Virus genome (UHGV): UHGV-1519562
Length of the DNA: 64,000 nucleotides
Direction: 5' to 3' (one strand)
Source: a virus
Shown here: in pieces, positions 16,487 through 40,377 of the stretch
How the letters are laid out: every line of letters starts with the position of its first letter
Numbering within the stretch: the first letter of the stretch is position 1
Program-made: the position numbers and the translations under genes
Notes under the pieces: model-generated
Database searches by the model: none
Told to the model about the DNA's origin: nothing
The model's input: the letters and a program-made list of their open reading frames with translations, nothing else

Positions 16487-19400
16487 TTATTTTCTAATAC
16501 TAGCATATTGAGCCGCATCATTAACAATATTATTAAGAGCTGCTTCGATTTCTGCTGCACTGGATACACCAGGGAAATCAGCTTGAATATGCACTATCTG
16601 TTCAACTATTTGTCCATCACTAGAAATAGTAGTAGAACTAGCCATACGAGCATTTAATAAATTTTGCCCTGCCATTATATTATTATCCAAAATTCTTTCT
16701 ATTTGTTTAAACAAATTAGGCCCTAATGTTCTAACTGCGGAAACAGCGGAAAGAATATTTTCAGTATCCTCTTGGTTCAAAACTAATTCTTTCTCATGTA
16801 AAAATGCTAATTTGCCATCTTCATTATCAAAAGAACCAGTATATCCTCCTGTTGCGTAACCTATTGTATGACTTTTAACAAAGTCCTCATATTTTCCGGT
16901 TCCGCCATTATCTTTTAGCCATTTCTGAAACTCTGGATCATTTTGCTTATTATAATAATCTTCATTAGAATAAATATACTGTTTACCTTGTTCAAAATTT
17001 TCTCCAAGAATTTTCAAATATCTTTGATATTCTAAACTCTTAAATATTTCATCTCCAACTTGTCCACCTTGGCTTAAATAATCATTCATAACAGAAGAAT
17101 AGTCAATATTAGAATTATACCCTTTCATATCACCAACAGAAGCAGCAACTGTTCTAGTAGTTACAAAATTAGACATTTCATACAAAGTATCTAATGCTTG
17201 ACGTACACATGCTGCATAATTAGACCATTGCTCTGAAGCTTGGCGGACTTCTTCAATTTTCTTCCAAACAGCATCCGCGGCTTGAGTACCCGCAGTAGTT
17301 AAATCTTGAGTAGATTTAGTAGTATCATCAATAATTTGTCTTAAAGTGTCTACATTTGAGCCAGTAGTCTCAGTAACTTCTTCCATAGTGCCATTATAAT
17401 TATCAGCAGCATTTTCCATTTCATCAAGAGCAGTTTCAAAATATGCAGTAAAGTTAGAAGTACCCATTTCCATAATCTTCATTACATCATTATAAGTATT
17501 TCCATATTCTGTAATTATTTCTCCGCCTGCGTCAGTCATATCTTCTAAAGATACTTGATACTCTTGCTGAATATAAAGGATTTTATCATTCGCATTTCTA
17601 CGAATTTCTGCAATCTTTTCTCCACGTTCTTCTTCAGTTAAACTTTCATCTTCATAAACATCTTTAATTTGGTCTAAAGTATCTTGTTTTAATTGCAGAA
17701 TTTCATCCATCATATTTTTAACTTGGTCTTTTGCTATATTATAATAATTATTTGCTGCATCTTCATACTTTTGAGTAGCTTCATCAATTTTAGACTGATC
17801 AGCTGTAAATTGATAATCCCAGTTGCCGGATTCATTGCGGACTAACCGCACTGAATTTTTAGCATTTTGAGCTTCATCCAAGGCATTTTGAGCAAGAGTC
17901 ATTTGATATTTTGCTTCTAAAATATCCAAATCATATTTAGATAATTTATTACCTTCACGTCTTACTTCAATTTCTTTTTGTAATGTTTTTAATCTATTCT
18001 TAGAAGCTTCATTAGTTTCTTCATCTATTGCTTTTTGAAGTTGTCTATTCCATTTACTTACTTCATATGTTTCATTAACTTTATCTAAATATCTTTCTTC
18101 TTTACTAATTAAATTATCATATTTTTGCTGCAATAATTCTAAACCCATTCCGCCACTAATAGCTTGCTCAAAATCATAAGCAGCTTTCTCAATAGCATTA
18201 GTATAATACTCTCTTGCAGTTTCCATGGCTTCTTTAGCTGCATCTAACATAGCTTCTTGAGATTCATTAAATTGTTTTAATAAAGCATCACGATTATTTT
18301 TAAGAGTATCATAAGCTGCATCTTCTTCAGTAACTCCAGCCAAAGCTTTTTCTGCTTCTGCTAATTGTTCCGCAGCTTTTTCCATCCATTGCTTTTGCAA
18401 TTTGGCAGTAGATGTAGCTGTTTCCAATCTTCCTTGAACAGTTTTCTGTAAAAGTTCAAAATTCTTACCAGTTTTATAAGTTATTCCTTGTAAATCTAAT
18501 AATTCTTTTACTGAATCTAATACAGTACCATTATGGTCTAATTGATCAGTAAATTGTGCAAATCTGTCAGCTGCCGCATCAATAACATCAGTTAAATACT
18601 CTCTAAGATTTTCTAACCAATCTTTTAAATCAGAAACAGTATCGGCAATATTGCCATGTAAATCTTCTAAAGAATCTATAACACTTTCAAAATCAGCACT
18701 ATCTTCAGATTCAGACATAAGATTAAATATCTGATTCATATGCTCTTCTAAGTCTTTAGCTTTAGCTAAATTGTCTTGCATACCAAAGAAATCAATTTGT
18801 CCAGGTTTTTTACCCCAATTAACAGCATCGCCAAAAGCTTCAACAACATTTTTACCTATTTCTCTATTAGTATCTTTAAAATCTTTAATCTTTAATTTAA
18901 CTTCTATAACAGCATTAATACTACTTAATTTTTCATCAAATTTCTTTCTAGCATCTTCAGCAATATTTTCTAAAAGTTCAACTCTTTGCTTTTGATCATT
19001 TTCATATTGTTCTAAGATTTCTTTTCTTAAATCAAGTGTTTTCTTTGCGGCATCAAGAGTATCTTTAAAAGATTCCTGCGCGGTTTTAGAACCTAAAGCA
19101 TTATATTTTCTTACTACTTTATTATATTCTTCTATTGCCCATTTTTCTAAATCTTCATAATTTAATAGAGCTTTACTATCAGAATCTATATTTAATTTAA
19201 CACCAGAAAAATTCTTTTGTAAATCAGTTAAATCTTCACTTAAATATTTTTCAGCTTCTTTTAATTTTTCTTTATATAATTCTTGTTCTTTGTTAATTGC
19301 TTCAATTTTTTCTTTATACTTTTCTAATTTTTTAACACCAAAAGCTCTATCTTTAGCAGTATCAATTTTATCTAATAATTGGCTTTGCTCTTCTAATCTA

Positions 19401-22400
19401 TTGTTAATATCGTGGTATCTATCATCAAAAATTTCTTCATCTTCAATTTCAGGAGAATCATCTGAGCCGGAGCCGCCACCTCCGCCTTTTCCTTTTCCTC
19501 CCTTTCCTTTACCACCTTTGCCTTTTCCTCCTCCTCCACCAGAAGGACGATTGTTATCAGTAGAAATACCATGAGGGTTAAGAGTTCTACCGCCAGTTCC
19601 TCCTCCTGAAGGGGCAAAAGCTTTTAAACCTTGAGACAATACAGATTGTTTACCATATTCTTCTAATGCAGAACCGAAAGCAGAAAGGTTTTCTAAAAAC
19701 CCTGGTGTCTCACCTTTACTAGCAGCACCAGTATCTTTTGAACGAATATGATTTGATTTACCGGGGCCATTAACTTTTTTCGCGCTTGCCGAACCAGTGG
19801 TGCTAAACATGGGCGAACCACCAGAACCAGAACCCGTTAAATCAATATGAGCAGAAGGCATGTCCCATTCAAAAGGAATTTTTCCTCCTGTTGTAAGTAA
19901 AGCGCCAATTTTATCGGCTAATCCCCCACCTAAACCAATACCACCAGGATTATCAACAACACCAGTCGCTTGAATAGTATAACTAAAACTACTAATAGCA
20001 CTTGCCAAAGATTGTAATAACTGTCCACCAATTTGACATAAAGTACCAATACTAACCTGACTCTGAGCTGCTAGACCATTAATTGCAGAAGAAGCTACTG
20101 CTGTATTTCCTTGCATAGCACTAGCTAATTGACTTTGAGAAGTAATTAAACTAGAATCAAAACCAGCATTTTCAGCTTCCATGTGGGTCATAATCGCACT
20201 AAAAGCTTCAGCATTTGTATCTTTTAAAGACCAAATATCGGCAGCCATAGTATCGCACATATTTTTAAATTTAGTTGTTGTTGTATCAAAATTATCAGGT
20301 AATTCAAGCCAATTCTTATCATTTAAATAATTTTTAAAATAATCATAATAAGAAGTAATATCATCTATTGCTTTTTTAAATCCTTCAGCTTGATCAACTT
20401 GCTTTTCCCAAGTATTTAAATTTTGAACTTTTTTCTGGGCATCTTTATAATCTTGTGTAGCTTTAGTTGCATCATCAATATTATCAGTAACAACTTTATA
20501 ACCATCTGCTGTTTTAGTGATATATTTATTAGATTTAGCAGTGATATTCATTAAAGCTTTAGTACCTTTAACTGCACCAGCATAATATTCCTGCATATTA
20601 GTGCCGCCAGCTTCAACTTCACTAATTAAATCTTTAAAACCATCAGCCAAAGCAGTAGTAGAGGAAATCATAGTTTTTGCATAATCAGATTCTTTAAGAC
20701 CATCTATACCATCACTTAGTTTTGCAAAATTATCTCCAGTTTTACTAACTCTTTGATTTATTGCATCAAAATATTCACTCGCACTAATTTTTCCCTCTTG
20801 GAACGCTTGAGCCTGTCTTCTAAGTGCTTCAGTATTTTTATCAAAATCTTCTCCACTATCTGCACGTTCTTGATCAGACCAATTTTTACTACTTTCAATT
20901 AAACTACTATAAAGATCAACATACTGCTGAGCATAATCTCTATCAACTTTACCTTTGTTTTGCATAGATTCAATAGCTTGGTCTAATGCCAATTTCTCAG
21001 CTTTTTCCATTTCAGTAAAGTCGGTTAAAGATTGAGTAGTTAAAACATACTCATCTCCAACCTTTTTAATATATTGAGCATATTCACTATTAGCTTTAAT
21101 TAGCTCATAGGTTTGATCCATAGTAAGATAGCCCTGTTCTTTATAAGACATCAAAGCTTTTTCTAATGGTTCTTCATTAGTATTTAAATTGTCTATTTTA
21201 GCTTTTGCTGCGTCTAATTCAGAAGTATCTACCTTAACTTTAAGGTCTGTATTTTTAGCATTTTCAACAGCTTCCATTAATTCTCTAAAAGAACCAATGT
21301 TTTCTAAATCCAAGGTAAGAATAATATCCCAATCTTCAGCAGTTAATTTATTTAATTGCTCTTCAGTTCCACCTATTTCAGATTTAATGGTTTCTCTAGC
21401 TTGAGACATTCTTTCTGCAATTTGATTAAATAAATCATCAACAGAAATTCCCGCAGCTTCAATAGCAGAACGCATTTCATCTGTTAGAGCTAATCCAGCG
21501 CCTTTAATATCTCCAGAAGATAAAGCCCTAAAAATCTTATCTCTTACTTCATCAAAAGATTCATCATCTAATACCGGACGGATAACCATTTCATAATACT
21601 GATTATCAGTAGGATATATTAATTTTCTTAATTCTGCTAATTTGTCCTGCATATCTGCAATCATTGATGGATCGGCCACAATTGCACCAGAATCAACAGC
21701 GCCTAAATAATTAGCATAGTCTTGTTCTAATTCAGCTAAATCTTCTCCTACTTCAGAAGTCATTTGTGCGGTAGCTTCTGCTATTTGTTGCGTCCAATTC
21801 TGATATTGGTCTAATGCTTTTGCTTGTTGGTCAGAATTTAAACTATTATACCATTTATCTAAATCTTCTTGTGTTTTGAAATTAGAGGTATCAGCACCAG
21901 TTTTACCTTTTGGTTCTACTTTATAGGTCTTGTCATATTTTTTGTCAAAATTATCCGCAATAGCATAAGCCATTTCTGCTTGTTTAGCTTTAACTATACG
22001 CTCTCTTAAAGTAGCTTGTCTCTCTAAAGAAGCTTCTTGCTGTTTTAAATTAGCTAACTCATCTTGCTCAACAAGAGATAAAGAATCTTTAGATTCTAAT
22101 TCTTCTATCTTCTGTCTGGTTTGCTCTAAAGAACTATTTAACTCATCTAATTTGCTCTTTTGGTCAGAATAATTTTGAGTAGCATCTGTAATAGCTTGAC
22201 TAGCCTCTTTTTGAGTTACGACTAAAGCATCAACTATTTTTACAGCAGCTACAATTCCAGCCGCAAAAAGTGCCAAAACACCAATGGTTATGCCCATAGC
22301 TGCTGCTAAACTACCTTCAGAAACAGTAAGCAATTTTGTAATTGCAACATTAGCTATTTTTGCGGCTATATTTCCTTCTTCAGCCGCAGTATTTAATTTT

Positions 22401-25081
22401 GTAATAAAAGTAAGAGCTGCTACTGAAGTATTTACACCAGTATAAACTGAAACAAGAGCACCCATTGACTTTGACAAAGCCATGAAAAGACTACTGCCAC
22501 TCATCAAAATCATACCCAAATTAGTCATAATTTGAATGAAAGCTTCTCCCGCAGTAATATTTCCTTCCATAGATTCTTTGAAAACTTTACCCATATTACT
22601 AACCGCGGAAAGAGTCATTCCAAAATTTATAAGATGATTAGACATGCTTACAACAGTTTTTGCCCAACCCGATTCACTTTGAATACTACCAGTCTGCAAA
22701 CTATTCATAAATTTTTTTATTTGTTCATTAATTAATCTTGTATACTCCGCGGCACTATGTTCTTCAGCGGCTAATCTTCTTATCGAATTAATAAATTGAT
22801 CAATAGCTTCAGGAGAATAACTTAATTCCATTAAAGCTTGCTTTAAAAGTTGCATCCCTTTAGAAGCTTCTATTGACTGAGTACCTAAATTATTCAAAAA
22901 TTCTTGTAGTTTAGGAGTAGACCAATTTTGCATTTCTGTTTTCCACAAGCCGGTTTTTTGAATTAACTCTTGTAAAACAGCAGCACTTTCTTTTTGATCT
23001 ATATTTAAATTACTATAAGCTCGTCTTATTACCTCTATAGAACTAGCTTGAGATGCTAACTTTTGCATACTCGCTGTAACTTTTTCTGTAGTTCTTGTTA
23101 TGTCATCTTTTTCATCAAACAAAAAGACAGAATTAAGATTCTTTAATGGCCCATTAACCATATTGGTATTAAACTGTAAAATCTTCTGTCTAAATCTTTC
23201 TTCCCAACCAGGTTTTGGCTCTATATCTAACAATATAGTTGTTTTAAATTCTTCAGCTTCGCCCAACAAAGCAGTTTGCTTTTGAGCAGAAGTCATAATC
23301 TGTTGACGCAAAGCATCAATAACACCTACTCGCTGATTAACTTGCGACATTTGACTTTGGTCATAATTCTTAGTATATTTATTAATCATACCTTGCAACT
23401 GAACTTTTTCTCGCATTAAAGAAATTTCAGTTTCTAAAGCACGATTACCACCAATTATAATATCAAGATTTTCAGCTTCAGTTACAGTCTGTTCTTGTAA
23501 ACCTCTTGTTAATTTTCCTTGAAGTCCAGTCATGATCTGAATATTAGTAACAAAATTTTGTAAACCATTTATTAATTTACCACTATAAACAGAAGTAAGA
23601 ACAGAACCAACAACTAAAGCAATACCTTTTAATCCACCTAAAGCATTAACAACTTGTGCTATTCCGCTTAAAAATGGAGTTAAAACATCATCAATAGCAA
23701 CAATGCTCTCAGGATTCAAAATGCTATCATAAATATCTTCCGCCGCAGCTTTAACTCTTTTTCCTGCGGCTTCCCAAGATTCTGCATAAATATCAGCTTG
23801 TTTATTCAATTCACCTTCAGAATTTTGAGCAATCTTCAAATTATCTTCAAAGAGATCCCAGTTATCCATGAAAGAAACTAGCTGATTATATTGATGAACA
23901 CCAGCTACTGTTTGTGCTAATGCTACTTGCTGATCTTTTGCTAAAGTATCCCATTTTGCGCCCATATCCTCTAAGATTGAATCCATATTACGCAATTCAC
24001 CATTAGAGTCTTTAATTGAAATACCGACTTTGCTTAAAGCTTCCGAATACTTATTTAAATCAGTACCATCTTCAAGAGTTTCCCCTAAATTTAAACCCTG
24101 AATACGAGCAAAGATAGTTTTTAAAGCAGTACCAACAACATCTTCGCTTTGACGAGTTGTGGCAGTAATTGTTGCCAAAGCAGAAGCAGCATAATCAAAA
24201 CTCAATCCAATCGTATCAGCGATTGATGCAAACTTTTCTAAGCCACCTGCAATCTCATCCGAACTAGAAGCAGTAGCAGCACCTAGTGCCACCATCGCAT
24301 CAGCATAATGCTCTAATGATTGTGAACCATCATAGAAGTTATTCCAAACCGCAGTTAATTGGTTAGAAACTACTTGAGCACTTTCATTTGCGGCATTAGC
24401 CATTTTAATAGTAATATCAGTTCTATCAAGAACTTCTTTATCATTTAAACCTTGCTGATAATATATTAATGCTGCATCCGTATAATCTGTTGTTGTTGTA
24501 CTTAAATTTTTTGCAGCACTATTAGCTTGAACTGCAAAATCAGCCATTTGTTCAGCTGATTGTCCAGTAACAATTCTGATAGAATTTAAAGATTTATCTA
24601 AAGCTTTAGAATATTCAACACAAGTATTTAGAGCTCCCATAAATCCATGTAACGCACTTGAAGTTAATTGCCAACGAGCAGTATTTTTCATTGTTGTCCA
24701 CAATTCATCTAATACCTTATTAGTACGTCTCATCGGTAATTCCGCAGAAGTAACTGCTTGCGCAACTTTCATAAAAGCTTGCTGACCAGTAGGGCCTAAC
24801 TGAGATAATTGCTTAGCATAATCACTAATGGTCATCTTACTATTAGCTAAATTTCTATTAAAAGTTACTAAATCTAATTTTCCTGTTTCTTGATTAGTAG
24901 CAGTTTTTAAATTATTAGCTAATTCTAATGCAGATTTAGATGCTTCCCGCATACCCTGAGTCATTTGAGTAGTTGAAGAAGTACCCAATTTTTGTAAAGC
25001 TTTTACAGCATCATTTAAAGACGCTTTTAATTGTGAAGTATCACCAGTAAAGCCTACTTCATAATTAAGTCTTTTAGCCAT
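16487..25081 (-). CDS. tape measure protein
   Basis: 2,864 aa, coiled-coil-rich, internal Gly/Lys linker (GGGGGKGKGGKGKGGKGKGGGGGSGS), hydrophobic segments; canonical position after major tail protein. Confidence 0.8.
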   Translation of the reverse strand: MAKRLNYEVGFTGDTSQLKASLNDAVKALQKLGTSSTTQMTQGMREASKSALELANNLKTATNQETGKLDLVTFNRNLANSKMTISDYAKQLSQLGPTGQQAFMKVAQAVTSAELPMRRTNKVLDELWTTMKNTARWQLTSSALHGFMGALNTCVEYSKALDKSLNSIRIVTGQSAEQMADFAVQANSAAKNLSTTTTDYTDAALIYYQQGLNDKEVLDRTDITIKMANAANESAQVVSNQLTAVWNNFYDGSQSLEHYADAMVALGAATASSSDEIAGGLEKFASIADTIGLSFDYAASALATITATTRQSEDVVGTALKTIFARIQGLNLGETLEDGTDLNKYSEALSKVGISIKDSNGELRNMDSILEDMGAKWDTLAKDQQVALAQTVAGVHQYNQLVSFMDNWDLFEDNLKIAQNSEGELNKQADIYAESWEAAGKRVKAAAEDIYDSILNPESIVAIDDVLTPFLSGIAQVVNALGGLKGIALVVGSVLTSVYSGKLINGLQNFVTNIQIMTGLQGKLTRGLQEQTVTEAENLDIIIGGNRALETEISLMREKVQLQGMINKYTKNYDQSQMSQVNQRVGVIDALRQQIMTSAQKQTALLGEAEEFKTTILLDIEPKPGWEERFRQKILQFNTNMVNGPLKNLNSVFLFDEKDDITRTTEKVTASMQKLASQASSIEVIRRAYSNLNIDQKESAAVLQELIQKTGLWKTEMQNWSTPKLQEFLNNLGTQSIEASKGMQLLKQALMELSYSPEAIDQFINSIRRLAAEEHSAAEYTRLINEQIKKFMNSLQTGSIQSESGWAKTVVSMSNHLINFGMTLSAVSNMGKVFKESMEGNITAGEAFIQIMTNLGMILMSGSSLFMALSKSMGALVSVYTGVNTSVAALTFITKLNTAAEEGNIAAKIANVAITKLLTVSEGSLAAAMGITIGVLALFAAGIVAAVKIVDALVVTQKEASQAITDATQNYSDQKSKLDELNSSLEQTRQKIEELESKDSLSLVEQDELANLKQQEASLERQATLRERIVKAKQAEMAYAIADNFDKKYDKTYKVEPKGKTGADTSNFKTQEDLDKWYNSLNSDQQAKALDQYQNWTQQIAEATAQMTSEVGEDLAELEQDYANYLGAVDSGAIVADPSMIADMQDKLAELRKLIYPTDNQYYEMVIRPVLDDESFDEVRDKIFRALSSGDIKGAGLALTDEMRSAIEAAGISVDDLFNQIAERMSQARETIKSEIGGTEEQLNKLTAEDWDIILTLDLENIGSFRELMEAVENAKNTDLKVKVDTSELDAAKAKIDNLNTNEEPLEKALMSYKEQGYLTMDQTYELIKANSEYAQYIKKVGDEYVLTTQSLTDFTEMEKAEKLALDQAIESMQNKGKVDRDYAQQYVDLYSSLIESSKNWSDQERADSGEDFDKNTEALRRQAQAFQEGKISASEYFDAINQRVSKTGDNFAKLSDGIDGLKESDYAKTMISSTTALADGFKDLISEVEAGGTNMQEYYAGAVKGTKALMNITAKSNKYITKTADGYKVVTDNIDDATKATQDYKDAQKKVQNLNTWEKQVDQAEGFKKAIDDITSYYDYFKNYLNDKNWLELPDNFDTTTTKFKNMCDTMAADIWSLKDTNAEAFSAIMTHMEAENAGFDSSLITSQSQLASAMQGNTAVASSAINGLAAQSQVSIGTLCQIGGQLLQSLASAISSFSYTIQATGVVDNPGGIGLGGGLADKIGALLTTGGKIPFEWDMPSAHIDLTGSGSGGSPMFSTTGSASAKKVNGPGKSNHIRSKDTGAASKGETPGFLENLSAFGSALEEYGKQSVLSQGLKAFAPSGGGTGGRTLNPHGISTDNNRPSGGGGGKGKGGKGKGGKGKGGGGGSGSDDSPEIEDEEIFDDRYHDINNRLEEQSQLLDKIDTAKDRAFGVKKLEKYKEKIEAINKEQELYKEKLKEAEKYLSEDLTDLQKNFSGVKLNIDSDSKALLNYEDLEKWAIEEYNKVVRKYNALGSKTAQESFKDTLDAAKKTLDLRKEILEQYENDQKQRVELLENIAEDARKKFDEKLSSINAVIEVKLKIKDFKDTNREIGKNVVEAFGDAVNWGKKPGQIDFFGMQDNLAKAKDLEEHMNQIFNLMSESEDSADFESVIDSLEDLHGNIADTVSDLKDWLENLREYLTDVIDAAADRFAQFTDQLDHNGTVLDSVKELLDLQGITYKTGKNFELLQKTVQGRLETATSTAKLQKQWMEKAAEQLAEAEKALAGVTEEDAAYDTLKNNRDALLKQFNESQEAMLDAAKEAMETAREYYTNAIEKAAYDFEQAISGGMGLELLQQKYDNLISKEERYLDKVNETYEVSKWNRQLQKAIDEETNEASKNRLKTLQKEIEVRREGNKLSKYDLDILEAKYQMTLAQNALDEAQNAKNSVRLVRNESGNWDYQFTADQSKIDEATQKYEDAANNYYNIAKDQVKNMMDEILQLKQDTLDQIKDVYEDESLTEEERGEKIAEIRRNANDKILYIQQEYQVSLEDMTDAGGEIITEYGNTYNDVMKIMEMGTSNFTAYFETALDEMENAADNYNGTMEEVTETTGSNVDTLRQIIDDTTKSTQDLTTAGTQAADAVWKKIEEVRQASEQWSNYAACVRQALDTLYEMSNFVTTRTVAASVGDMKGYNSNIDYSSVMNDYLSQGGQVGDEIFKSLEYQRYLKILGENFEQGKQYIYSNEDYYNKQNDPEFQKWLKDNGGTGKYEDFVKSHTIGYATGGYTGSFDNEDGKLAFLHEKELVLNQEDTENILSAVSAVRTLGPNLFKQIERILDNNIMAGQNLLNARMASSTTISSDGQIVEQIVHIQADFPGVSSAAEIEAALNNIVNDAAQYASIRK

Positions 25082-37033: not shown

Positions 37034-37390
37034 TTAATATCCAGCTTTTTTCATAATATAATCATAACTGATTAAATTTTCTTCGGTATAGGGAATTTCT
37101 ATCAAATTTATATTTTTTAATGCACAAAATCTACGTTTTTGTTTATCATTATAATTCTGTTGATGTAATCCTCTACTACCACCAAATTTACTAACTGGCA
37201 TATAATGCTGTTTTCCTTGATATTCAATTAAAAAATCCAAATTATCATCATCATCAAAAACAGCAAAATCAAATCTAAGAGGTCTTCCATTTGAACTTGC
37301 TAAACCAGGAAACTCATATTCTTCTTTAAAATTAAGATTATTATTTCTTAAAATTTCTTCAATTTTAATTTCTGCTCTTGAAGCCCTCAT
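37034..37390 (-). CDS. small restriction-endonuclease-fold (DUF559/Vsr-like) protein, possible free-standing homing endonuclease
   Basis: 118 aa; RFDFAV ... FLIEYQGKQH resembles the D...ExK nuclease core; inserted between terL and portal. Confidence 0.4.
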   Translation of the reverse strand: MRASRAEIKIEEILRNNNLNFKEEYEFPGLASSNGRPLRFDFAVFDDDDNLDFLIEYQGKQHYMPVSKFGGSRGLHQQNYNDKQKRRFCALKNINLIEIPYTEENLISYDYIMKKAGY

Positions 37391-37434: not shown

Positions 37435-38892
37435 TTAGTTCATAAACATCAAATCTGCTACCTTAAAATGTTTGCGTTTACGTCTATTATCTTCCTCTTG
37501 TTTAATGTAGTATAAACCATATTCTAAAGAAGATACTTTATCTTTTCTAATTTTTCTATTTACTTGTTTGAGAATAATATTAACACCTTCGTTTTCTTCT
37601 CGAAGGTTAGTTAGCTCTTCTTTAAGTATGGAAGTTAGACTAAATGGAATAACATATTTTGACCTTTCTTGTGGAGTCATACCTTGGCCCAATTTAGTTT
37701 CCATTAATTTCATCATTGCTTCACGTTCATCAAGTAAAAATTTTACTTTACCAGCATTTAACTGTGTTTGCAAATTAGCATGAGCTTCAGTATTAATTGT
37801 AGCATTTGCTTTAATTAAATACATTGCTTCATCTTCTGTATCATCAGTTCTAAATTTTTTATAATAATTTTCTTCATCATTATAAACACCAAAAGGTGGA
37901 TAATATTCACCTGTTTTATCATCTTCTTGAACTTTTATCATATAATCAATAAGCCCAATACCCAAACCATTCGCATCTATCACCAAGCGTTTTGCTTTAT
38001 ATTTATAATATAATTTTTTCAACATAATAGCTTGATTTTCAAAATGTTCATCTTCCATAGTTACTATATTAACTAATGATTTAATGGATGGGCCTTGTGG
38101 TTGCGGGATAACCTTTAAAATGCAGGCAACTGTATCGCAACCTTTACGTCCAACGTCCACAGAAACTACATAATAAGAAGAAGCAGACGATCTTCCAGAA
38201 TATTCATATTCTGGCTTTTGAATTTTTCTATTTCTATCAAAAACTTCACTATTAAAGAAAGCATCTTCGACTGTTCCACTCCAGATCGACTCATACTCTC
38301 GACCAAAAGAAGCTTCATTAAAAGTAGGGTCACGTTTCAAATTAATTAAGAAATCAGAATCTAATAATCCAACTAATACAGGTATACGCCAAGAACCACC
38401 CATAACAATGCTTTGTCCTGGATCAACTACCATACGAACTAATAAAGTAATAAGTTTTTCGTAGGGAAATGTATTCTTCCAACCTGCCGTTGTAACGTAT
38501 ATCTGTGACTTATTTAAAGATTCTTCAGGGTGGACAGAACCATCCATGCATCTACGTGAAACGTTCATTGTAGGGATTATCACTTCATTTAATATAGTTC
38601 CATCTACACCAACGCATTCCTCAACTAGTCCACCATGCCTACGTTTACCACGTGAACTTTCTTTAGCCGCTACAATATCAAAATAACTACCACTTTTAAA
38701 TTTATATATACAATAATCTTTACTAATTTGAGTTTGTCCTCTTCCCCAATCAATTTCTTTTTTAAAGGCTGGTACAAGTTTGCATATTTCTTCTACCTTT
38801 TCTTTCACAATTGTAGCTGCCTGCTCTTTACCGCCAGAAGTAACAAACAATTTTGCACCAGGATAAAGTACACAACGACACATCAAAACCAA
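37435..38892 (-). CDS. terL: terminase large subunit, exon 2 (rest of ATPase plus nuclease domain)
   Basis: 485 aa ORF that begins inside the ATPase domain (no Walker A); true exon start is probably about 38900-38910, after an intron ending in G. Confidence 0.7.
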   Translation of the reverse strand: MVLMCRCVLYPGAKLFVTSGGKEQAATIVKEKVEEICKLVPAFKKEIDWGRGQTQISKDYCIYKFKSGSYFDIVAAKESSRGKRRHGGLVEECVGVDGTILNEVIIPTMNVSRRCMDGSVHPEESLNKSQIYVTTAGWKNTFPYEKLITLLVRMVVDPGQSIVMGGSWRIPVLVGLLDSDFLINLKRDPTFNEASFGREYESIWSGTVEDAFFNSEVFDRNRKIQKPEYEYSGRSSASSYYVVSVDVGRKGCDTVACILKVIPQPQGPSIKSLVNIVTMEDEHFENQAIMLKKLYYKYKAKRLVIDANGLGIGLIDYMIKVQEDDKTGEYYPPFGVYNDEENYYKKFRTDDTEDEAMYLIKANATINTEAHANLQTQLNAGKVKFLLDEREAMMKLMETKLGQGMTPQERSKYVIPFSLTSILKEELTNLREENEGVNIILKQVNRKIRKDKVSSLEYGLYYIKQEEDNRRKRKHFKVADLMFMN

Positions 38893-40095
38893 AATTGAAA
38901 GGAAAGATTTACTGTCTTTTTATTCATATAAATTCGCAAAATTTATATCGTTTCATCGTAAAACTGCTTATAGTTTCCTATAAGAATAGACTATATCACA
39001 TTTTATTATAAAAATAAAATCTTCTCTTTTCGATTTAAAGGATTTTCACCTACTCCATATGCTTGAGCCCTACTCCTATTACTTCTATTTTTATTCCTCG
39101 GAAGCTTATTTCAGGATAGTCGTTAAAGATTTATAAATTTTAAGCATAATGAAAAATAAAATTACCAGTTGTTTTTAATTTTCCTTTACAGCATTTTATA
39201 ATACTGCTACTATCTAATCCAAGCTGTCTACCTGCTTCACGACTAGAAGGATAAGTAGCAATAAAATTATTATCTAAATCATATTGTGAAACTGGTTTAA
39301 TATTAGAATTTAATTTTTGTTCATAATAAGCTTTTTGAACATTATCACTTATTGAAATTTTTCTTAAATTATTTAAACAATTATTATGTTTATTGCCATC
39401 TATATGATCTATCACAAAATTTTTATCAATATTTATCTCATTATTAAAAGAACAAAATACCAATTTATGAACTAACCAATCAGAAGTTTCTCCATTTTTA
39501 CTTAATCTTACTTTATGATAGCCAGAAGTTTCAGAAGGTGATAAAATATTATTATTTGTAATATTCCATACTCTTCCATAATTAGATACTTTATAATTAG
39601 AATTATTTATAGTTTCAATCCATATTTCTCCTTCTAAATCTCCATTATATTTTTGTATTTTTTTATTTTTAGAATTTTTTTTAATTGTACTATGAAAATG
39701 TTCCATATTTTCACTATAAGAAACCCATTCTAAATTATCTACGTTATTATTAAGTTTATTTCCATCCTTATGATTAACAACAGGTAAATTATCAAAATTA
39801 TCAATAAAATATTCAGCTACTAACCTATGAGCATAAAACATTTTTTTTGTATTTTCTTTAGATAATCTATAATATTTATAACCATTTTTACCAATAGAAC
39901 CATCTAACATTTTCTTTGTTTTTATATTAAAAACATCTCCATTATCATAAATATAATAATTATCATAATTTTTAATTTTTTTTCTCATTATACTTCTCCT
40001 TTATATTTACTCTGGATTTTCATGTCCATAATTATGAATTTAGAATTCCCACAATTAGAGAAGTTTGTCCAAAATTTTCCACAAACTAAGAAAAT
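38893..40095 (-). mobile_element. group I intron interrupting terL at the Walker A region, carrying an HNH homing endonuclease ORF; boundaries approximate
   Basis: terL split into two ORFs flanking a free-standing HNH gene; R-like (cgACTATcc, plus 39115-39124) and S-like (gATATAGTC, plus 38990-38998) P7 core elements downstream of the endonuclease ORF. Confidence 0.6.
39140..39988 (-). CDS. HNH homing endonuclease (NUMOD4 / HNH_3 / C-terminal helix-turn-helix)
   Basis: 282 aa; duplicated YKVSNYGRVWN-type modules, VNHKDGNKLNNNVDNLEWV and IDHIDGNKHNNCLNNLR HNH motifs; own RBS. Confidence 0.85.
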   Translation of the reverse strand: MRKKIKNYDNYYIYDNGDVFNIKTKKMLDGSIGKNGYKYYRLSKENTKKMFYAHRLVAEYFIDNFDNLPVVNHKDGNKLNNNVDNLEWVSYSENMEHFHSTIKKNSKNKKIQKYNGDLEGEIWIETINNSNYKVSNYGRVWNITNNNILSPSETSGYHKVRLSKNGETSDWLVHKLVFCSFNNEINIDKNFVIDHIDGNKHNNCLNNLRKISISDNVQKAYYEQKLNSNIKPVSQYDLDNNFIATYPSSREAGRQLGLDSSSIIKCCKGKLKTTGNFIFHYA

Positions 40096-40377
40096 TTATT
40101 GGCGCCAACTCGACGCTCGAGGAAAGGTCATGTATACATATTTGTAACGCATCGCAGCCCTAAGGAAGACACGCTGATAGTAGTAAAATTCTAGCTGTTT
40201 TTTACGAGAACTATCTCCTCCGTCCTGTAAAAAATCCACAAATAAATCTGGATATTCTCGCCAAAAAGAAACATATTGACGAGCAACAGGCAAGATAGCT
40301 CTTATTCTCTCTTCTGAAATACCTATTTTCTTTCTATTATTAGATAATTCTAATAATTGTTGTAATGCCATTATCAT
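40096..40377 (-). CDS. terL: terminase large subunit, exon 1 (N-terminus up to Walker A)
   Basis: 93 aa ending ...YYYQRVFLRAAMRYKYVYMTFPRASS.., the typical terL N-terminus just before the P-loop; ORF stop lies inside the intron. Confidence 0.6.
   Translation of the reverse strand: MIMALQQLLELSNNRKKIGISEERIRAILPVARQYVSFWREYPDLFVDFLQDGGDSSRKKQLEFYYYQRVFLRAAMRYKYVYMTFPRASSWRQ

Follow-up and report, generated by a model that had tools for sequence, protein, structure and literature searches.

Comparative evidence for a mobile group I intron at codon 89 of the putative large terminase gene in an uncultured phage genome

In Kayvirus, the group I introns that interrupt the gene for the large terminase subunit (terL) carry an HNH endonuclease gene (I-MsaI), and the spliced protein has been seen by mass spectrometry (PMC5618024). 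In Bastillevirinae (e.g. SIOphi TerL), splicing of terL group I introns has been shown both in vitro and in vivo, and the endonucleases of PHROG 59 (HNH) are found among their open reading frames (ORFs) (PMC11878797). We analyzed a comparable arrangement in a 64,000-nucleotide (nt) stretch of the virus genome UHGV-1519562, which is referred to below, at its whole length, as the window. In this stretch, a gene assigned to terL is interrupted at codon 89, the Tyr codon of the motif R-A-Y-S-K-S, and the interrupting element is almost certainly a mobile group I intron of the IA2-like phage type (Twort / phage K lineage). The boundaries of the insertion, the identity of the spliced product to a natural intron-less protein, the homology and covariation of the ribozyme core, the endonuclease domains, a presence/absence polymorphism among near-identical phages and the occupation of this site in more distant phages were all established directly.

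The minus strand carries three consecutive ORFs of 93, 282 and 485 aa (ORF list of the 64-kb window; Table 1). An earlier note on this DNA had regarded the 93-aa ORF, with its end ...MTFPRASS, as the N-terminus of terL and the 485-aa ORF as the remainder, and both were present at the positions given there. Both outer ORFs matched PHROG 15503 (a 245-residue profile), at positions 26-95 and 104-215, respectively; because distinct sections of the profile were matched, the two ORFs can be regarded as two parts of one protein. When T40113 was joined to A38915, a 581-aa protein was obtained (...TFPRA-Y-SKSFLSILVLM...), and the 1197 nt thereby removed are preceded by U and have G as their last base. 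The predicted exon-exon junction reads CCUCGAGCGU followed directly by ACAGUAAAUC. The splice that the note had suggested, from a U to AC AGT AAA TCT, was thus exact: R-A-Y-S-K-S-F is restored without a gap relative to uninterrupted homologues, at the very point where the alignments with intron-less relatives break. Its delimitation of the element required revision. The insertion does lie between the two terL parts, but exon 2 begins at 38915 rather than at the TTG codon at 38892, and the range 38893-40377 holds the intron together with exon 1 and 23 nt of exon 2. In the unspliced terL frame, a stop codon occurs 6 codons inside the intron, and no Shine-Dalgarno sequence is present ahead of the exon-2 TTG.

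The joined sequence corresponds to a protein that exists in nature. Using tblastn, we found 89 GenBank phage records with a single unbroken match spanning the junction, and alignments of the spliced protein with MT836163 (TFPRAYSKSFLSMMVLM), Enterococcus phage H1 and Geobacillus E3 (TFTRAFSKSF) contained no gaps at this position. The motif [FY][TPS]RA[YF]SKSF was unbroken in 80 of the 80 related loci bearing it (77 from IMG/VR and 3 GenBank phages), with the codon-89 site being occupied in none of them. Moreover, a search with the exon-2 protein retrieved full-length proteins of 579-581 aa that were 99-100% identical to the query, including one (P0123) that is encoded by an uninterrupted gene and is identical to the predicted spliced protein at all 581 residues. 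Three metagenomic contigs encoding P0123 or a near-identical variant (L105, L106 and L107) share 96-97% identity with the window on either side of the insertion site, and in each case the DNA alignment stops at 40113 and restarts at 38913/38915. Because the alignments break at the junction, the 1197 nt represent an insertion that is exact to the base when compared with a naturally occurring intron-less allele, and the flanking bases permit no shift of the intron boundaries.

We also counted mismatches between the window and these intron-less alleles. In exon 1 (265 nt), 2, 2 and 9 mismatches were observed for L105, L106 and L107, respectively, and in the first 100 nt of exon 2 (38815-38915) the corresponding counts were 9, 10 and 8; the mismatches of L105 and L106 were all synonymous. 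This distribution might hint weakly at a co-conversion tract 3' of the insertion site, although the mismatch density is comparable elsewhere in the gene and the effect is not significant.

The sequence of the insertion outside the central ORF exhibited similarity to known phage introns. The 224 nt located 3' of the HNH ORF showed 74-78% identity over 134-174 nt to the introns of phage K lysK and of the SEP1 endolysin gene (blastn), and the matched part of the K and SEP1 introns likewise lies directly 3' of their HNH ORF. We built a covariance model of the 3' domain (R1; P7, P7.1, P7.2, P8 and P9) from eight other phage introns, all of them known or annotated as group I, excluding the window, and searched the window with it. 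One strong match was obtained (38964-39131, minus strand; 133.9 bits, E = 6e-32), which covered the model at full length with 33/33 pairs canonical and far exceeds what chance would give, and the runner-up reached E = 0.07. The R and S motifs that had been proposed to pair as P7 were found at 39124..39114 (AACGACUAUCC) and 38997..38989 (GAUAUAGUC) and do form this pairing. Since P7.1 and P7.2 are present between P7 and P3', the intron was assigned to the IA2-like phage type.

Further support came from orthologous introns. Seven loci in other metagenomic phages carry an intron with the same boundaries, namely GCGU immediately before the intron, a terminal G, and an exon 2 that restores Y-S-K-S-F. 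We aligned the window with these seven introns (n = 8), with the ORF excised, and overlaid the proposed structure on the alignment. Standard pairs were observed in 93.1% of the cells, compared with 39-51% when the partners were slid, and compensatory changes were observed in 41 of the 78 pairs, compared with 9-14 for slid partners; none of 500 shuffles attained any of the observed covariation values. Covariation supports the helices from P2 to P9.2, with compensatory changes in 3 pairs of P3 (93% of cells paired), 3 pairs of P9.1 and 8 pairs of P9.2. The supported helices include P3 and P6a, both of which bridge the ORF. Because these two helices covary across the ORF, the entire 1.2 kb can be regarded as one RNA structure in which the ORF occupies the P6a loop. 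Taken together, the U and G at the splice sites, the similarity to the K lysK and SEP1 introns, the covariance-model match and the covariation in the eight orthologous introns bear out the group I assignment made in the earlier note. For P2, the pairing AGUUUGU/ACAAACU was considered and dropped in favor of the one listed in Table 1; GGACAAA is conserved as a single-stranded segment in the orthologues.

Table 1. Positions of the split gene, the predicted intron with its helices, and adjacent features in the window
Feature	Coordinates	Strand	Details
93-aa ORF	40377..40096	-	C-terminus YVYMTFPRASSWRQ followed by stop (MTFPRASSWRQ, stop)
terL exon 1	40377..40113	-	ATG at 40377; T40113 = base 1 of Tyr89 codon; from gap-free alignment and DNA breakpoint
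Predicted group I intron, 1197 nt, IA2-like phage type	40112..38916	-	start CGAGUUGGCGCC, end AAUAAAAAG; omega-G at 38916
P1	40116..40113 and 40105..40102	-	GCGU (exon; U.G at splice site) and GCGC (internal guide); invariant in 8 orthologous introns
P2 hairpin	40097..40072	-	AAAUUUUC/GAAAAUUU; 4 pairs with compensatory changes
P3, 5' strand	40063..40057	-	CUUCUCU; partner 39027..39021 beyond the ORF; 7/7 pairs
P4 around P5	40054..40011	-	P4 UU-(G bulge)-UGGG/UCCA-GA; P5 UUCAU/AUGAA
P6a, 5' strand	40005..40000	-	UAUAAA; partner 39137..39132; covaries; terminal loop contains the ORF
HNH homing endonuclease ORF, 282 aa (849 nt)	39988..39140	-	ribosome-binding site AAGGAG at 40001..39996, 7 nt before ATG
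3' catalytic domain	39137..38964	-	P6a' to P9; R1 match
J6/7-P7	39121..39117	-	GACUA
P7.1/7.1a	39116..39074	-	all pairs canonical, covarying
P7.2/7.2a	39071..39038	-	all pairs canonical, covarying
P3'	39027..39021	-	
P8	39020..39000	-	
J8/7 + P7'	38993..38989	-	UAGUC
P9	38984..38967	-	GAAA loop
P9.1 + P9.2, then 3' splice site	38964..38916	-	P9.1 GUUU/AAAC; P9.2 AUAUAAAUU/AAUUUAUAU; covariation
terL exon 2	38915..37435	-	begins AC AGU AAA UCU = (Y)SKS; stop TAA 37437..37435
485-aa ORF	38892..37435	-	first codon TTG at 38892
118-aa ORF	37390..37034	-	between terL and portal gene

The ORF between the two exons, which the earlier note had described as an HNH endonuclease gene with its own ribosome-binding site (RBS), was found as described (Table 1), and its product belongs to the I-HmuI family according to both Pfam and an alignment with I-HmuI, in agreement with the proposed HNH homing endonuclease. 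The 282-aa protein matched Pfam HNH_3 (6e-18, in two stretches), NUMOD4, NUMOD1 and I-HmuI_NUMOD-like, as well as PHROG 59 'HNH endonuclease' (2e-70). Residues 3-104 align to I-HmuI (PDB 1U3E; E = 1.5e-17), and the C-terminal helix-turn-helix aligns weakly. An internal repeat was detected between residues ~7-113 and ~128-235 (35% identity, E = 2e-12), from which we concluded that the protein contains two tandem NUMOD4 + HNH modules with the catalytic His kept in both. The layout is accordingly two copies of [NUMOD4 + HNH], with the HNH motifs NHKDGNKLNNNVDNL and DHIDGNKHNNCLNNL, followed by a C-terminal NUMOD1/I-HmuI-like helix-turn-helix. The D-H of I-HmuI is retained in module 2 and replaced by N-H in module 1.

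Homologues of this protein are abundant in metagenomes (3764 at E <= 1e-10; of the 120 listed, almost every one is full length). The identical protein is encoded on two contigs, of up to about 134 kb, and five more variants with 97-100% identity were found on other contigs. In other metagenomic phages, this terL site holds homologues of 56-80% identity, and the gene order there is a YonG_N gene, an ORF of 85-105 aa (where called), the HNH gene, the remainder of terL and, mostly, the 118-aa ORF. A scan for promoters and terminators around the intron gave counts no higher than those in shuffled sequence, and we therefore make no claim on separate transcription of the endonuclease gene.

The identification of the split gene as the large terminase of this phage clade, which was also the view of the earlier note, is supported by homologue annotation, synteny, weak PHROG matches and a structure model of low confidence. 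Uninterrupted homologues in Enterococcus phage H1, Geobacillus E3 and Bacillus phages are annotated as the terminase large or ATPase subunit, YonF, and the gene is located between a YonG-like gene and the portal gene. Matches to terL PHROGs were weak and involved the C-terminal part (3.5e-4). When the AlphaFold2 (AF2) model of the intron-less protein P0123 was searched with Foldseek, the top matches were the terminase nuclease domains of herpesvirus, T4/RB49, G20c and SPP1 (probability up to 1.0, E ~ 1e-3). A hydrophobic strand precedes the segment R-A-[YF]-S-K-S, and a Walker B-like motif, GL[VI][ED]E (GLVEE in the window), is located ~95 residues further toward the C-terminus; as judged from these motifs, PRAYSKS is a putative Walker A motif (P-loop).

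Several observations weigh against this interpretation of the intron and its host gene. P1 comprises only 4 bp, and both P1 and P7 are invariant across the eight introns, such that they are conserved and covariation is silent about them. An inspection by eye for P10 revealed nothing convincing, merely a possible 2-bp CA/UG pairing that we do not claim. P4 is interrupted by a G bulge or G.G mismatch that three orthologues share; as judged by reading the sequences, the geometry of the bulge matches that of the bulged A in P4 of the phage K lysK intron. A covariance model of the 5' domain (R2; P2, P4 and P5), which was built from eleven introns, had its top window match at 40005-40105, directly after the 5' splice site, with a score that is weak alone (22.3 bits, E = 0.073). 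Rfam cmscan detected no group I match, either in the whole window at the gathering score or in the region at E <= 10, and the Rfam model Intron_gpI (RF00028), when applied to the 3' part alone, gave a local match to P7'-P9 only (17 bits, E = 0.03). As controls, the same model was applied to known introns. It detected the ORF-less introns of Twort orf142 (64-101 bits) and two introns, likewise ORF-less, in terL of Enterococcus phage EF1 (52-88 bits), but it did not match the ORF-containing introns of phage K lysK, the SEP1 endolysin gene and Quidividi mre11. Because known ORF-containing phage introns are missed in this way, the negative Rfam result carries little weight; it is a limit of the model when faced with a loop of ~860 nt, and no evidence against membership in group I. 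A covariance-model search, which the earlier note had put forward as a check, was positive with the custom phage-intron model, whereas Intron_gpI remained below its gathering score. With regard to the host gene, Pfam and NCBIfam gave no match for the two terL pieces or the spliced terL, and PDB sequence and profile searches with terL returned nothing meaningful. The P0123 model had a predicted local distance difference test (pLDDT) value of 48, which is of low confidence, and only the Foldseek matches of the C-terminal domain are usable for this reason.

Other explanations for the split gene were also considered. A free-standing HNH gene might have divided terL into two genes whose 93-aa and ~485-aa products assemble without splicing, as in some T4-like split genes, and it is true that gene callers in public assemblies give two separate ORFs and that the HNH ORF has its own RBS. 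However, the break lies inside a codon and inside the putative P-loop, so that the product of the first ORF would end in PRASSWRQ, without Lys-Ser, and that of the second, started from a TTG without a Shine-Dalgarno sequence, would be devoid of SKSF. Moreover, the sequences flanking the HNH ORF form a full group I core with strong covariation, for which a free-standing endonuclease gene has no reason. We consider this explanation exceedingly improbable. It is also highly improbable that the element is a decayed, non-splicing remnant, with terL being a pseudogene on a defective phage genome or a mis-assembled contig. The uncultured source, from which the viability of the phage is not evident, the short P1 and the lack of a clear P10 would be compatible with such a remnant; every core helix is nevertheless intact, the 3' domain contains no non-canonical pair, the endonuclease ORF and both exons are intact, and the endonuclease recurs in identical form on the two contigs and as the five further variants at 97-100% identity. 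In addition, the intron is still found at this site in phages with endonucleases that are as little as 56% identical, and its helices there show compensatory changes, which argues for selection on the intron fold. Mis-assembly is unlikely because both flanks are collinear with the intron-less relatives.

Intervening elements of other types, namely inteins, group II introns and insertion sequences, are excluded by frame, content and structure; all that would speak for one of them is that an endonuclease ORF is located within a gene. An in-frame intein is contradicted by the stop codon that the terL frame meets 6 codons past the start of the insertion and by the separate ATG of the HNH ORF, and a group II intron by the absence of a reverse transcriptase or maturase and of any Rfam group II match. 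As for an insertion sequence, the insertion is precise to the base, and its boundaries are explained without terminal inverted repeats or target duplication. In addition, both sequence and structure match group I introns.

For a group I intron at this position, splicing, the activity and target of the endonuclease, and homing are steps that we infer from the sequence. terL would be transcribed as a 2.9-kb precursor, and the RNA would fold into P1-P9.2, with P3 and P6a uniting the 124-nt 5' part and the 224-nt 3' part and with a P6a loop of 862 nt (39999..39138) enclosing the 849-nt ORF. Exogenous guanosine would then attack after U40113, at the U.G wobble in P1, and the released exon 1 would attack after the omega-G at 38916, such that the ligated exons would form the mRNA for the 581-aa terminase. 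Translation of the ORF from its own RBS would yield a two-module HNH endonuclease of the I-HmuI-like type. In a mixed infection, this enzyme might cut or nick intron-less terL near the insertion site, and recombinational repair from the intron-carrying genome would copy the intron into the broken gene (homing). terL is an essential gene, and because its unspliced frame stops 6 codons into the intron and exon 2 lacks an RBS, splicing would be needed. Indirect support for cleavage and homing comes from the occurrence of intron-plus and intron-minus alleles among phages that are 96-97% identical, and from the presence of the intron at this site in phages that have diverged.

With regard to annotation, the three ORFs (93, 282 and 485 aa) are better recorded as a single 581-aa terminase plus an intron-encoded endonuclease. 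Furthermore, since the standard Rfam scan does not flag them, the number of ORF-containing introns of this lineage in metagenomic phage genomes is probably underestimated. The locus documents a homing element within an essential packaging gene, at the motif that is most highly conserved in it, and the natural intron-plus and intron-minus alleles, together with the eight orthologous introns, constitute a comparative data set for the homing and spread of introns in an uncultured phage clade.

In the orthologous loci, in-frame stop codons (translation table 11) were observed in both the terL exons and the HNH ORF (L095, L097, L099, L102 and L104) or in the HNH ORF (L101). The orthologous HNH ORFs carry TAG 1-5 times or, in L101, TGA twice, and the stops in terL of the relatives fall at positions where the window has Q or E (e.g. 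KS-stop-IYITTAG vs KSQIYVTTAG). A PCRF/RF-1 release factor is encoded nearby (L097/L098, 1-226). These relatives appear to use stop-codon recoding, and their intron endonucleases appear to be adapted to it. The terL and HNH ORFs of the window contain no in-frame stops.

A further, speculative possibility concerns the duplicated HNH modules. The enzyme might be a double-strand-cutting derivative of an I-HmuI-like nickase, with one module per strand, and the intron might serve as a competition weapon against intron-less strains; we regard this as rather unlikely. Strains with and without the intron, 96-97% identical, are both represented in public metagenome assemblies. If it were true, mixed infection would lead to cutting of the essential intron-less terL, by which the intron would be spread and the competitor suppressed, and the recoded TAG and TGA codons in the orthologous endonuclease ORFs would tie expression to the late, recoded phase of infection. 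Interference through mobile introns has reportedly been found in jumbo phages.

The window comprises packaging and structural genes of a large phage, including SPbeta-like YonG, YonF-like terL, YonD and YonB (Pfam on relatives) and a 2864-aa ORF within the region 16487-25081 (minus strand). A megablast search with 24 kb of the window against GenBank phages gave no match. The 118-aa ORF between terL and the portal gene matched PHROG 9084 'homing endonuclease' over the nuclease portion of that family (1e-28), and also PHROG 559, the latter being described as VSR-like and intron-encoded in Bastillevirinae terL. This ORF is kept at the same position in the intron-less relatives L105 and L107 and in Enterococcus phage H1, and because of this conservation it looks like a fixed small nuclease gene rather than a sporadic mobile element. 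Further ORFs of the homing-endonuclease type were found in relatives, namely a GIY-YIG/NUMOD3 ORF beside the YonG-like gene (L102, 906-1550), additional HNH ORFs within terL (L103, 4667-5431 and from 5824 onward) and a DUF723 ORF (L104, 3872-4618). In this clade of phages, mobile endonuclease genes have invaded the packaging module extensively.

Among known introns, that of phage K and SEP1 lysK (I-KsaI; Kayvirus, Sepunavirus) shares with the present one the helices P1-P6, the HNH ORF in the P6 loop, and the succession R/P7, P7.1, P7.2, P3', P8, S/P7' and P9. The lysK intron of phage K also has a P4 bulge at the same position and an I-HmuI-like HNH family endonuclease, and its layout with the ORF in the P6a loop is found in the Quidividi mre11 intron as well. 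On the other hand, the lysK and SEP1 introns differ in the sequences of P2, P5 and P9.x, in their host gene (endolysin vs terL) and in their phages (Herelleviridae myoviruses vs an SPbeta/H1-like phage), and the endonuclease of phage K has ~166 aa and one HNH module (ORF 1270-1770, L005), compared with 282 aa and two modules in the window. The Twort orf142 introns I1-I3 share the IA2-like core with AACGACUA...GAUAUAGUC, P7.1/P7.2 and the P9 GAAA hairpin, although they are ORF-less, have a length of about 250-330 nt and are located in a structural gene rather than terL. These introns are self-splicing, and the crystal structure of the I2 ribozyme is available as PDB 1Y0Q. With I-HmuI, the HNH nicking endonuclease of the SPO1 DNA polymerase intron, the window protein shares an N-terminal beta-sheet DNA-binding element and the HNH module; it differs in having the second NUMOD4 + HNH module and in the N-H of module 1.

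The host gene function is shared with the terL introns of Kayvirus, Bastillevirinae and Enterococcus phage EF1. We found no paper in the literature joining terL, intron and Walker A motif. The terL of EF1 belongs to the same family as that of the window and contains three Rfam-detectable group I introns; it is interrupted at about residues 203, 247 and 295 (L004, 5555-7180), in contrast to codon 89 in the window. In GenBank, EF1 terL is annotated solely as separate 'hypothetical protein' fragments. Other members of the family are interrupted at residue 183 (L081, 2717-4001) and residue 347 (L085-L088, 5035-5349). Because its members are interrupted at so many positions, terL of this family can be regarded as an intron hot spot, with codon 89 as one more site. 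The present intron reveals no new mechanism or principle; group I introns that carry HNH genes in terL have been documented in other phages, and the codon-89 intron adds one more example to them.

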